Below are positions 11,762 through 51,430 of a stretch of 64,000 nt of DNA, piece after piece; position 1 is the stretch's first letter, and the number at the start of each line of letters is the position of its first letter. The notes beneath the pieces are model-generated. The model saw only the letters and a program-made list of their open reading frames with translations. It was not told where the DNA came from and did not search any database. A program made the position numbers and the translations under genes. The DNA comes from Octopus vulgaris (taxonomy: Eukaryota), in assembly GCA_951406725.2 (NCBI GenBank), contig OX597817.1, positions 152,768,001 through 152,832,000 on the forward strand. The letters are read 5' to 3'.

Positions 11762-11802
11762 TATTCAACCGGTTTTCGTCATTGTATGACTTGTCAAGAA
11801 TA
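11762..11802 (-). ncRNA. Minimal hammerhead-like motif, U3:A8 variant (left arm)
   Basis: Reverse complement of 13743-13783. Confidence 0.65.
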
Positions 11803-12429
11803 TTTATGTTTTAAAAAGTTTTTTTAAAAATTAGAAAGGGGAAAAAAGAAAATTGCATTGTTTTTTGTAAAAGAATAATGATAAAAATGTACAAAAATTA
11901 AAAAATAAGTTCTCCGATACATTGTGAGTTCGTTGTGTATCTTGAGTTTTATGGTTGTTTACGAAAAAATTACCTTGAGGTGTTAAGATCCAAAGGGATT
12001 AAGAGCATGTGTTGTGTTGTTAAATTCAGCATGTTTGCAGGACAGGAAGTAGTAGTAATTGTGGTCCTGGTTCTTCAGTTCCTGTGTTGTGAGTAAGGGG
12101 AGACAACTCTTTTGAGTTCTTCAATAAAACCCAAATTATAAAATTATCATTTTAGCTTCATTTGCGTTATCTTTTTTATATAATTGCTTGTTAACTTAAC
12201 TTTCAGATTTTAACACTTTATTTATATTATTTTCTAATTATATAAATCTGCATAGACAATTGCATTTCAAATTGTCATATCATTTATAATAAAAATGATA
12301 GTAATAACAACAATAGTAAAAATGATATTTAAAGAATATAAGTTTTAGCTTGAAGTGATGAATGCATGGTATCTTTATATATTTGTGTTAGTCCATCCAT
12401 GAAGAGTGAGGTAGAGAAAGGAAGTTTGA

Positions 12430-12893
12430 TCAACGAGGAGTTTGCATATTAAGTTGTGTTTGGAATTTTTCCATAAAGAGATTCTCCTTGTTAATTCTCT
12501 CCTGTGTGGTGATCCCGTCTTTACATTGGTAGAAGGGGAATATATAGAATTTGGGGTTTAAGTCTTTAGCACATGAGTCTAAGTGGTCACTCAGTGGAAT
12601 TTGTCGGTATTCCGGGAGATTAGGTTGGGTGGTTTTCAGTGTAGTGTTGTCTAGTTCTTTGGCGCGTTTTATTCCATACTCTATAAGGGTGGAGGGATAT
12701 TGACGTTGTAATAGTGTTTTTTTGAGGTCTTGAAGGCGTATTTCTCGTGTTTTTGGATCCGAGACAATGGTGCATACCCTTTTAGCTAAATTGAAAGGGA
12801 TATTTGTCTTGGTGTGTTTTGGGTGGCATGAACTAAAGAGAAGGTATTGTTGTGAGTCTGTAGGTTTGTGGTAGATGTCTGTTATGATTTCGT
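12430..12893 (-). pseudogene. PLE reverse transcriptase thumb fused in frame to the GIY-YIG C-terminus
   Basis: TDIYHKPTDSQQYLLFSSCHPKHTKTNIPFNLAKRVCTIVSD is the PLE RT C-terminal motif (YxKPT..YL..S.HP); followed by ...ERINKENLFMEKFQTQLN. Confidence 0.88.
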
Positions 12894-13115
12894 AAACGAG
12901 TAACGGTGCATAAAGAACAAATAAATCTCCCGGAATACCGACAAATTCCACTGAGTGACCACTTAGACTCATGTGCTAAAGACTTAAACCCCAAATTCTA
13001 TATATTCCCCTTCTACCAATGTAAAGACGGGATCACCACACAGGAGAGAATTAACAAGGAGAATCTCTTTATTGAAAAATTCCAAACACAACTTAATATG
13101 CAAACTCCTCGTTGA
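12891..13115 (+). pseudogene. PLE GIY-YIG endonuclease C-terminal half
   Basis: RKRVTVHKEQI...SDHLDSC...ERINKENLFIEKFQTQLN retains the R, H, E and LN hallmarks of PLE GIY-YIG domains. Confidence 0.8.
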
Positions 13116-13742
13116 TCAAACTTCCTTTCTCTACCTCACTCTTCATGGATGGACTAACACAAATATATAAAGATACCATGCATTCATCACTTCAAGCTAA
13201 AACTTATATTCTTTAAATATCATTTTTACTATTGTTGTTATTACTATCATTTTTATTATAAATGATATGACAATTTGAAATGCAATTGTCTATGCAGATT
13301 TATATAATTAGAAAATAATATAAATAAAGTGTTAAAATCTGAAAGTTAAGTTAACAAGCAATTATATAAAAAAGATAACGCAAATGAAGCTAAAATGATA
13401 ATTTTATAATTTGGGTTTTATTGAAGAACTCAAAAGAGTTGTCTCCCCTTACTCACAACACAGGAACTGAAGAACCAGGACCACAATTACTACTACTTCC
13501 TGTCCTGCAAACATGCTGAATTTAACAACACAACACATGCTCTTAATCCCTTTGGATCTTAACACCTCAAGGTAATTTTTTCGTAAACAACCATAAAACT
13601 CAAGATACACAACGAACTCACAATGTATCGGAGAACTTATTTTTTAATTTTTGTACATTTTTATCATTATTCTTTTACAAAAAACAATGCAATTTTCTTT
13701 TTTTCCCTTTCTAATTTTTAAAAAAACTTTTTAAAACATAAA

Positions 13743-13783
13743 TATTCTTGACAAGTCATACAATGACGAAAACCGGTTGAATA
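13743..13783 (+). ncRNA. Minimal hammerhead-like motif, U3:A8 variant
   Basis: tattc-TTGACAA-gtcat aca atgac-GAAA(A)-ccgg-TT-gaata: helix I, core, helix II, palindromic loop III; one extra A. Confidence 0.65.
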
Positions 13784-13924
13784 AATATATATTTATATAT
13801 TTTATCAATTTCTCATTTTATTAAAATTTTCTTTCATTTGAGCATTCTGCATTTTTAAAAATTTTTTTCCTTACTATATATATATATATATATATATATA
13901 TATATATATATATATATATATATA

Positions 13925-48800: not shown

Positions 48801-50747
48801 GTGTGTGTGCATGTATATATATGTATACATATATACATGCAGGTATACATGTAATACATGTATACCTATATACACATGCACACACACACACATATATATA
48901 TGTAATACATGTATATAGATATATGTGTATATATATATAGGCATATATATATATATGATCTTACATATATATTCTTATATATGCAAAAATGTGCGTATTT
49001 GTGTGGTTTCGCGTGCGCGTGAAAGTTGCATCAGTGTGCAGCAGCTGTAGCAATGCACTCAATCGTATGCTGAATACACCAGTATGTTAAATAATATGAT
49101 TAGATGCGATTAGATAAAACATGAGGTGAACAATATTCGCTGCACATTGAACACTGCACACACACACGCACTCACAAACACGTACTGCAATCGCTTGTAC
49201 ATATATATATATATATATATATATATATATATATATATATCTTCAGAGCTACTCACAGGGTTGCGCATGTGTGAAAATCTGGAATATGATGTGCAATTGT
49301 AACAACTTGGAAAACAATAAATGCTCGCATGACTGAACAATTACAAGCAAAATTTTATACACACATACCGATATGTATGTATGTATGTATGTATGTATGT
49401 ATGTATGTATGTATGTATGTATGTATGTATGTATGGATGGATGGATGTATGTATGTGTGTAAGTGCATGCGCATAATTATGTTCACTCACAATCTTGTAC
49501 GTCTATTTATGAGAGATTTTTACCCATGCATATGTATGTATATATGCACATATATGCATGTATGCATCCATACATATACACGTATATGTTTATATGCATA
49601 CATACATGCATACATGCAAACATACATGCATACATGCATACATATATGTAGTTATATGTAAATACATATATATATATATATATATATATATATATATATA
49701 TATATCAATGTATGCGTATATATATATATAAATATATATATATATATATATACACATCTATATATACGCATATATGCATATATCTATATATATACACATA
49801 AACACACATGTATGTATGTGTACATACACCCTAGCGTACTTATGTATATATACATACAAATATGTATATATATATATATGTATATATTTATATATACATA
49901 TATATATGTATATATACATAGATACTTATGCGTGTATGTATATATACATATTGTATATATATATATATATGCATGTAGGCACAGAAATATCAACACCGAG
50001 TCTCAAAATAGTAAAATATCAATTTACTAAATCATATAAACAAAGCAAAAAGAAAATTATACAACAAATAGAATTAAAAAACGCACACAAAACATTAATA
50101 AACAAATGTACACATACCTAAACACAGATATAAATCAATGCAAAAACATATTTATACAACGCTAGACACTCATAAATCAATACATACAGACGCACACACA
50201 CACACACACACACACACACACACACACACACACACACACACACACACACACACACACACACATATACACATACATGCATACATATATATACATATATATA
50301 CATACATATACATATATATATATATATATATATATATATATATAGACATAGATACATACACACATATATATTTATATATATACTTGCTGATAGAAACCCA
50401 TGCAGACGGACACCCAGAGATTGGGTCTTATATATGTATATTTACATACATGCATGCATACATACATACATACATACATATATATATATATATATATATA
50501 TATATATATATATATATATATATATATATATATATATACAAACATACGCACATATACGCACCAATATACGCTCACACACATACAATCGCACATCTATACA
50601 TAAGCATACCTATAAGAATATACAAACATGCGTTTACTAAGAAGCGTGCTTTGCAATCAACGTCGAATTCGGGTAGACAGAAACGGTATGGAAACTTGCC
50701 ATGTGTATATATATATATATATATATATATATATATATATATATGTA

Positions 50748-50940
50748 TATATTGGCAGGGCTTACTGCTAGGGAGTCGGCCGTATGCTAGAAATAGACGG
50801 CCGACTCCCTAGCAGTAAGCCCTGCCAATATACACATATATTAGAATTTTCTCTGACTCCTCAGATTTTTGTATGCTGGACTACTGGTTTTAAATTGATA
50901 TTAAAATTAATATTAATTTATCTCCCTCATTATTTAAATA
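50748..50940. mobile_element. Small fold-back element in (TA)n
   Basis: Perfect 36-bp arms at 50748-50783 and 50797-50832, 13-nt loop, one-sided extension to (TA)n. Confidence 0.75.
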
Positions 50941-51058
50941 TTATATATATATATATATATATATATATATATATATATATATATATATATATATATATAT
51001 ACATATACATATATACAAATATGTATATATATATATATATATATATATATATATGAGA

Positions 51059-51201
51059 TACAGCACAGAATTTTGTCAGTGAACAGGTCACGGTCTCAAA
51101 GCGACGAAAATATTTTGACAAATTAAATTTAAGTGTTGAAGTGAATCTAACGGTTTTTGTGCGTTTCTTAAATGGCTTATAAACACCTTACCTGCTGCAA
51201 T
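51059..51201 (+). mobile_element. Solo copy of the 16995 family with G3:C8 hammerhead (51072-51122)
   Basis: tttgtca-GTGAACA-g-gtcac..gcgac-GAAA-atat-TT-tgacaaa; between (TA)n tracts. Confidence 0.75.
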
Positions 51202-51254
51202 TATATATATATATATATATATATATATATATATATATATATATATATATATAT

Positions 51255-51430
51255 CGGTAGCCACTACACACATTTTTTCTCTCCTTGTTTGTTTCTGTGT
51301 TCCTTTCTGTAGAATAGCATACGCTCGAAACGTAAAAGACTTTTTCTATTCCTGAGCGTTATACTAATATATCCGATTGTTTTGTACACCACCTGTCTTC
51401 GTCTTTTGTTTTTGTCGTGAACTCTCCCCT
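51255..51430 (+). mobile_element. Solo PLE terminal-repeat-like element with degenerate hammerhead (51303-51338)
   Basis: cttt-CTGTAGA-a-tagc atac gctc-GAAA-cg-TA-aaag; between (TA)n tracts. Confidence 0.65.

Follow-up and report, generated by a model that had tools for sequence, protein, structure and literature searches.

A natural hammerhead-type core with a swapped 3:8 base pair is fixed in an abundant short repeat family of Octopus vulgaris

Introduction

Do hammerhead-like motifs whose cores depart from CUGANGA represent variants kept for an active fold, or are they copies of ordinary ribozymes in decay? This question is raised by a 64,000-nucleotide (nt) stretch of the Octopus vulgaris genome (GenBank assembly GCA_951406725.2, contig OX597817.1, positions 152,768,001 to 152,832,000; here called the window), for which an initial annotation had proposed a panel of non-canonical minimal hammerhead ribozymes belonging to Penelope-like elements (PLEs). 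One study reportedly covers about 150,000 PLE-associated variants. Published PLE minimal hammerheads have an extra base after A9, a G10.1:C11.1 pair, and a palindrome; many families occur per genome, U3:A8 forms are found in Schistosoma, and dimers cleave weakly (PMC4209133).

The panel proved to be mostly known in kind. The one solid novelty is a natural G3:C8 core that is fixed in a very abundant short repeat family (family D) under four organism labels, which is a variant of a known system and no new ribozyme class. We consider it probable that the motifs sit at the 3' ends of short repeats derived from several PLE families and that the 3:8 pair of family D was fixed as G:C, likely via selection of source elements for the active fold, with cleavage predicted to be slow, to follow U17, and to occur only in a dimer or with protein.

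Results and discussion

Two copies of a G3:C8 hammerhead motif

The window (34% G+C, ~21% tandem repeat) also contains dispersed short repeats and Tc1/mariner remnants. A strict descriptor, in which the 3:8 pair could be any Watson-Crick pair, matched three loci (core starts 15305 plus, 17115 minus, and 51079 plus), whereas 40 dinucleotide shuffles gave 0.1-0.4 matches on average. A more relaxed, scored descriptor was compared with 100 dinucleotide shuffles; it was devised after the motifs had been seen and is therefore biased toward them. Its highest score, 10, was obtained at 17115 minus and was reached in 0 of 100 shuffles, and 51079 plus scored 8. Both of these loci carry the core GUGAACA and belong to family D, with the following features.

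17072..17122, minus strand: G3:C8 minimal type-I hammerhead, family D copy 1 (D1); core start 17115, GUGAACA (descriptor and fold)
16995..17134, minus strand: family D unit of ~140 nt, bearing the hammerhead and ending 84 nt past the predicted cut (sequence comparison)
17132..17239, plus strand: inverted, 5'-truncated twin of family D, head-to-head, without the core (sequence comparison)
51057..51202, plus strand: family D copy 2 (D2) inside (TA)n; hammerhead 51072-51122, core 51079-51085

D1 is composed of a 7-bp helix I, GUGAACA, an extra G, a 5-bp helix II, GAA, a 6-nt palindrome, and U17. Its predicted minimum free energy (MFE) fold consisted of the hammerhead helices I and II, with pair probabilities of 0.76-1.0 for helix I and at least 0.99 for helix II. 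The two GUGAACA copies were the cleanest fits in the window, both having the 7-bp helix I, the G10.1:C11.1 pair, and the 6-nt palindrome. They are independent insertions and 90% identical; when the targets were checked for AT richness, D2 sat in (TA)n and D1 did not. The predicted cut lies 84-87 nt from the element end. A search of viral, metagenome, and prokaryote genome contigs with a 22-nt family D pattern returned 0 matches.

Family D across public contigs

From 24 listed runs, 4 were used, each under a different organism label, and their public contigs were aligned to 51057-51202 at 80% likeness (13,506, 9,215, 6,278, and 6,134 contigs per run). In all four runs, every alternative letter stayed below 2% throughout 51057-51088 (the helix I 5' strand, core positions 3-9, extra G, and G10.1) and 51107-51117. 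G3:C8 is the family state of D and not the decay of single copies. The initial annotation had itself raised the possibility that family consensus sequences are canonical and the variants copy-specific; GUGAACA held as a family state in the four runs, and CUGUAGA, another of its cores, likely is decay. That all non-canonical cores are copy-specific decay of CUGANGA is thus very improbable: the explanation is false for GUGAACA, given two independent window copies and no canonical letters at 2% or above, and U3:A8 was found in three window families and is in print, even if decay is likely right for CUGUAGA and possible for GCAA (one of two family H copies) and for an extra A in family E.

Position 51090 of D2 is a private change in helix II, and A>G at this position, present in 90-93% of contigs, restores the fourth helix II pair. 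A>G at 51118 (17-42%) changes U-A to U.G within helix I. The remaining stem changes and those at G12 (1-4%) were CpG transitions, with 9 of 10 CpG positions being variable. Subfamily variants that differed between runs (51097, 51128, and 51154) all retained the core. The ratio of summed depth to that of long single contigs, which gives no true copy number, was ~28,000-43,000 for the core and rose to 50,000-166,000 at its peak, and family D is present in roughly tens of thousands of copies.

In most listed contigs, family D begins about 10-20 nt before helix I and stops near 51200, with loose ends, and every genomic copy seen retained sequence upstream of the cut site. Opposite-strand joints from 51057-51074 reached many differing positions. 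Since the inversion junctions vary, the inversions are independent events. Among the joints listed, a single low-depth joint going back 99 nt was found in 3 of 4 runs and may reflect tandem D copies.

Relation to known hammerheads

Family D resembles the type-I motifs of PMC4209133 in its short helix I, 7-nt core, extra nucleotide between 9 and 10.1, G10.1:C11.1 pair, and palindromic helix III, and those PLE hammerheads are likewise dispersed as single or opposite-strand copies. In contrast, the 56 motifs of Fig. S3 in that paper comprise 53 C:G, 2 U:A, and 1 U/G but no G3:C8 (its descriptors being blind to that pair), and no cephalopod is represented among them. Natural U3:A8, viroid U4C, A6C, and insertions in the GAAA region are on record (PMC3088659); the passages of that survey considered here list neither G3:C8 nor A13C. 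Hence, the novelty implied by the initial annotation does not extend to U3:A8 (PMC4209133) or U4C (PMC3088659), which are already published, and stands for G3:C8, which we did not find reported. No natural G3:C8 hammerhead was found in the literature searched, although an earlier record may exist in figures, further supplements, or repeat databases, and the main text of a 2026 Octopus vulgaris repeat annotation contains neither "hammerhead" nor "ribozyme" (PMC13282606).

Non-LTR retrozymes, regarded as non-autonomous derivatives of PLEs, are similar to D in being short, non-coding, hammerhead-bearing, and tied to PLE terminal repeats (10.64898/2026.07.22.740005; PMC7229834). They are defined by tandem units, whereas D occurs solo or head-to-head, with no tandem in the window and only the rare joint described above.

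As a reference set, we used the best 80 of 185 metagenome PLE loci. The descriptor yielded 16 matches in these 80, all on the sense strand, versus 0.55 in shuffles. Their 3:8 pairs were 13 C:G, 2 U:A (one inside an open reading frame [ORF] and probably due to chance), 1 C:U, and 0 G:C. The motifs share the layout seen in the window, with palindromes of 4-8 nt (6 nt included). By blastn, the family elements of the window had no match in the 80 loci. In one locus (L032:114), the ORF is preceded by a clean U3:A8 motif, another (L056:2826/5418) carries two different canonical motifs, and a third (L030) has two identically scored tRNA matches on the minus strand (4325-4397 and 4684-4756) just past its PLE hammerhead.

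Selection for the active fold and alternative explanations

Because positions 3 and 8 pair in the active hammerhead fold, a natural compensatory swap at these positions is a sequence-level sign of selection for that fold in PLE hammerheads. If two of the six conserved bases in the 7-nt core changed at random, a 3:8 Watson-Crick swap would result only about once in 45 cases, and selection on the active fold in the source lineage is therefore likely as judged from the sequence. Selection for activity, which the initial annotation had suggested from the co-occurrence of C:G, U:A, and G:C, is a fair conclusion for 3:8 swaps only.

A natural G3:C8 core is plausible, since in the Anolis PAc (Poseidon) PLE, whose cleavage requires the PLE protein, single C3G or G8C mutants were dead and the C3G/G8C double mutant was partly rescued (PMC11167929). 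Reverse transcription of this element begins 111-118 nt into the ORF, and cleavage falls at position 26 (PMC11167929), from which we derived a cut-to-start distance of 85-92 nt. PAc thus resembles family D in its swapped pair and a similar cut-to-end distance; its swap was engineered, whereas that of family D is natural, fixed, and high-copy. According to data not shown in PMC3884650, a G3-C8 hammerhead variant was less active with C17 than with G17; family D has U17.

In the mechanism we propose, the source RNA would fold helices I and II, and helix III would form between two RNA copies via the palindrome, as published for PLE minimal hammerheads. Reverse transcription would start within the RNA about 75-95 nt past the cut and copy uncleaved RNA, so that genomic copies would keep the whole motif. 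Dispersed copies would be mostly inert, decaying mainly at CpG. The near-fixed 5' end of D might, speculatively, mark where transcription began, a short way upstream of the motif, if copying from the internal start ran back to that point. Family D would be linked to an autonomous PLE. The stronger claim that D is a natural active G3:C8 hammerhead, selected across several related species and carried in tens of thousands of copies of a ~150-nt non-autonomous Penelope unit, is one that we hold tentatively and a little short of probable.

Several observations weigh against selection and activity. The D palindrome contains A/U only, with a duplex energy of -0.2 kcal/mol, and a modelled D double hammerhead (-25.1) was not favored over two monomers (-26.4) or the MFE structure (-30.1). 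Fold z-scores were unremarkable except for D1 (-2.1), and pairing with an inverted twin would hide the motif within a long hairpin. No ORF was linked to family D, or to families A, B, C, F, G, and H, within the window. In the contig survey, copies were collapsed, and differences near contig ends and relatives less than 80% alike were invisible. Non-CpG variants affected 1 of 35 structured versus 11 of 69 unstructured positions (p=0.056), which is only suggestive, and most non-CpG positions of the family were also less than 2% variable; fixation among D copies mainly mirrors the source elements. Finally, insertion of the Anolis PLE in vitro did not require cleavage, and uncleaved RNA was the main substrate (PMC11167929).

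The last point also bears on a first alternative, in which G3:C8 is a catalytically dead relic whose two changes were both unselected, amplified since PLE insertion needs only the downstream structure where reverse transcription starts. That hammerhead mutants left insertion in vitro unaffected, with unprocessed RNA as the main substrate (PMC11167929), fits such a relic, as do the sequence kept upstream of the cut in all genomic D copies seen and the weak palindrome. We nevertheless consider it unlikely: the two changes complement each other exactly, nothing is lost from the nine remaining core bases, G10.1:C11.1, the palindrome, or the 7-bp helix I, the run-specific variants at 51097, 51128, and 51154 keep the core, and one common stem variant keeps pairing.

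According to a second alternative, D is a repeat resembling miniature inverted-repeat transposable elements or short interspersed elements (SINEs), with hairpins that mimic a hammerhead and no PLE origin. The descriptor score of 10, unmatched in 100 shuffles, and a cut-to-end distance that fits PLEs argue against mimicry, and the inversion junctions differ from copy to copy, as for the inverted 5'-truncated twins described for PLEs (PMC8557442). Such a repeat would agree with the absence of an ORF link, with element ends that are short imperfect inverted repeats of each other (the ends being loose), with one copy lying in (TA)n, and with the resemblance of D1 to a 245-nt palindrome. The opposite strand of D1 also contains a B-box-like 9-mer, which points the same way, although only 0.1-22% of contigs carry the letter that makes it B-box-like (51148 T>G). 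Altogether, this alternative appears improbable, clearly more so than a dead relic.

Two specific candidates were rejected. Judged against the usual A and B box consensus, a tRNA-derived SINE on the opposite strand of family D showed no clear A box by eye, and its B-box-like 9-mer was limited to a minority subfamily. A relation of the family D region to UnaL2 had a weak match (E 3.4).

Compared with these alternatives, we prefer descent from PLEs with source-element selection for the active fold. Such selection matters given that insertion can proceed in vitro without cleavage (PMC11167929). A high-copy G3:C8 family further means that descriptor-based hammerhead censuses undercount animal genomes, and some PLE families scored as hammerhead-less (e.g., Naiads, PMC8557442) merit a rescan with a free 3:8 pair. 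If D is active, few ribozyme motifs in its genome would be more abundant, and it would be invisible to CUGANGA or UUGANAA searches. Together with C:G and U:A families, one of which switches between the two, it would then constitute in-genome 3:8 covariation.

Family E and a Penelope-like element remnant

The link to PLEs that the initial annotation had drawn is borne out by the motif layout and by a remnant of reverse transcriptase (RT) and GIY-YIG endonuclease sequence with a sense-strand motif, designated family E.

11670..13875, no strand assigned: PLE remnant with 952-nt inverted arms (repeat and protein comparison)
12430..12882, minus strand: PLE RT-thumb segment fused to the GIY-YIG C-terminus (61% identity over 101 aa to a PLE protein)
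12883..13115, plus strand: GIY-YIG C-terminal segment in the inverted arm (protein comparison)
11762..11802, minus strand: U3:A8 motif, family E; core start 11797, UUGACAA; sense to the PLE ORF
13743..13783, plus strand: U3:A8 motif in the other arm of the same insertion, no independent copy; core start 13748, UUGACAA

The arms differ at 4 positions in 952 nt, and in both the motif is sense to the ORF and downstream of it, in the order RT, GIY-YIG, motif. At 12621/12622 on the minus strand the RT thumb is followed directly, in the same frame, by the C-terminus of the endonuclease, corresponding to an internal deletion of ~140 codons in the alignment with relatives. The only near relatives of the fragment with a named source come from Argonauta hians and Octopus bimaculoides, at 60-67% identity. 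Relatives of the protein bear a CX4CxxC linker, a feature tied to the Neptune and Nematis clades (PMC8557442). Pfam gave no match for the fragment itself, and a PLE alignment search of viral contigs found no relative. The family E motif fits the layout only if an extra A is allowed in the GAAA run or if position 17 is taken as G; it has one A more than L004, a metagenome PLE relative with the same palindrome. Homology between E and family F was reached by 2 of 1000 shuffles for the whole region and by 302 of 1000 for the downstream part alone, which does not establish a common origin. The families likely descend from several PLEs. Adjoining the insertion, a Tc1/mariner remnant with 27-nt terminal inverted repeats occupies 13925-15184.

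Other hammerhead-like motifs in the window

All 7-nt cores named in the initial annotation are present, the positions it gave marking helix ends, and C:G, U:A, and G:C all occur at 3:8. As a panel, the motifs were enriched over shuffles: the scored descriptor found 6 sites at a score of at least 7 (0.1 in shuffles), 7 at a score of at least 6 (0.36), and 9 at a score of at least 5 (1.07). Behind D1, scores were 9 for 25598 plus, 8 for 13748 plus and 11797 minus (as for D2), 7 for 43372 plus, 6 for 15305 plus, 5 for 53002 minus and 37317 plus, 4 for 46122 minus, and 3 for 61829 minus and 51307 plus. Shuffles yielded 5.4 matches at a score of 3, and the lowest-ranked sites are indistinguishable from chance by the descriptor alone. 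This applies to CUGUAGA (score 3), and GCAA at 37317 (score 5) was near chance. The nine sites proposed initially represent seven insertions, as 11762/13743 and 15305/15253 are each the arms of one inverted insertion, and three sites (25598 plus, 46122 minus, and 53002 minus) are additional.

Rfam returned no hammerhead among the best 150 of 517 window matches, nor in the family D regions, the canonical 43372 region, or 9 PLE loci with canonical motifs; its silence is uninformative because it misses even canonical PLE motifs. MAFFT alignment did not bring helix I into register. The motifs outside families D and E were as follows.

43368..43402, plus strand: canonical CUGACGA minimal hammerhead, family A, weak helix I; core start 43372 (descriptor)
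51303..51338, plus strand: CUGUAGA motif, relative of family A; core start 51307; A6U and broken 10.1:11.1 pair
15300..15339, plus strand: C3:G8 motif with U4C, family C; core start 15305, CCGACGA (descriptor)
15219..15258, minus strand: inverted, more decayed U4C copy in the same insertion; core start 15253, CCGACGA
37312..37351, plus strand: U3:A8 motif with GCAA for GAAA, family F; core start 37317, UUGAUAA; helix I out of register
25593..25639, plus strand: canonical CUGACGA motif with 10-nt palindrome in an inverted pair; core start 25598 (descriptor)
46085..46127, minus strand: C3:G8 motif, family H copy 1 (H1), CUGAAGA, GCAA; core start 46122; old, damaged
52965..53007, minus strand: U3:A8 motif, family H copy 2, UUGAAAA; core start 53002; old, damaged

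The order helix I, core, helix II, GAAA, UH, helix I' was present in D1, D2, A, and G, in E with one extra A, and in C with U4C. A palindromic 15.1-16.1 segment was found in D, A, B, C, F, G, and H, and in E if one extra A is allowed; the G10.1:C11.1 pair was found in D, A, E, and F and was lacking in B, C, G, and H. Within the window, the canonical CUGANGA core is limited to families A, G, and H1, and searches for it miss the other forms, as had been predicted. U3:A8 occurs in E, F, and H, and inverted twins are present for C, D, F, and G. In eight measured copies, the predicted cut was 74-97 nt from the element end, compared with the 85-92 nt derived for the Anolis PLE.

The notion of one core variant per family did not hold. 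The motifs at 43372 and 51307 are relatives, their downstream homology being reached by 7 of 1000 shuffles, and since 51307 is related to a canonical motif and carries A6U plus the broken 10.1:11.1 pair, its CUGUAGA core is likely decay, the simplest reading of the sequence. Likewise, the H elements 45996-46127 and 52851-53007 (both minus) have a common palindrome and a shared downstream flank (alignment score 91, reached in 0 of 2000 shuffles), yet differ in C:G versus U:A at 3:8, with apparent compensatory helix II changes by eye. This pair is, at the level of sequence comparison, a small in-window case of 3:8 covariation. The family C motif has a 5-bp helix I, a 3-bp helix II, and a 9-nt near-palindrome, and the motifs at 43372 and 37317 have just 2 contiguous Watson-Crick pairs in helix I. 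In family F, whose inverted arm is at 37167-37257, GCAA is present in both arms; U4C and GCAA may be either real variants or decay.

The inverted pair at 25527-25722 contains a second GAAAC-GUC-like stretch near 25695, and its arm end resembles the first 15 nt of D2. Similarly built inverted-repeat insertions without a descriptor match are located at 18179-18405, 26227-26638, 50753-50827, 62699-62994, and 10057-10218. Finally, the repeats 21040-21172 and 52151-52283 (92% identical) lack a downstream helix II-GAAA and carry CUGAUGA in one and UUGAUGA in the other, possibly as half or permuted motifs.

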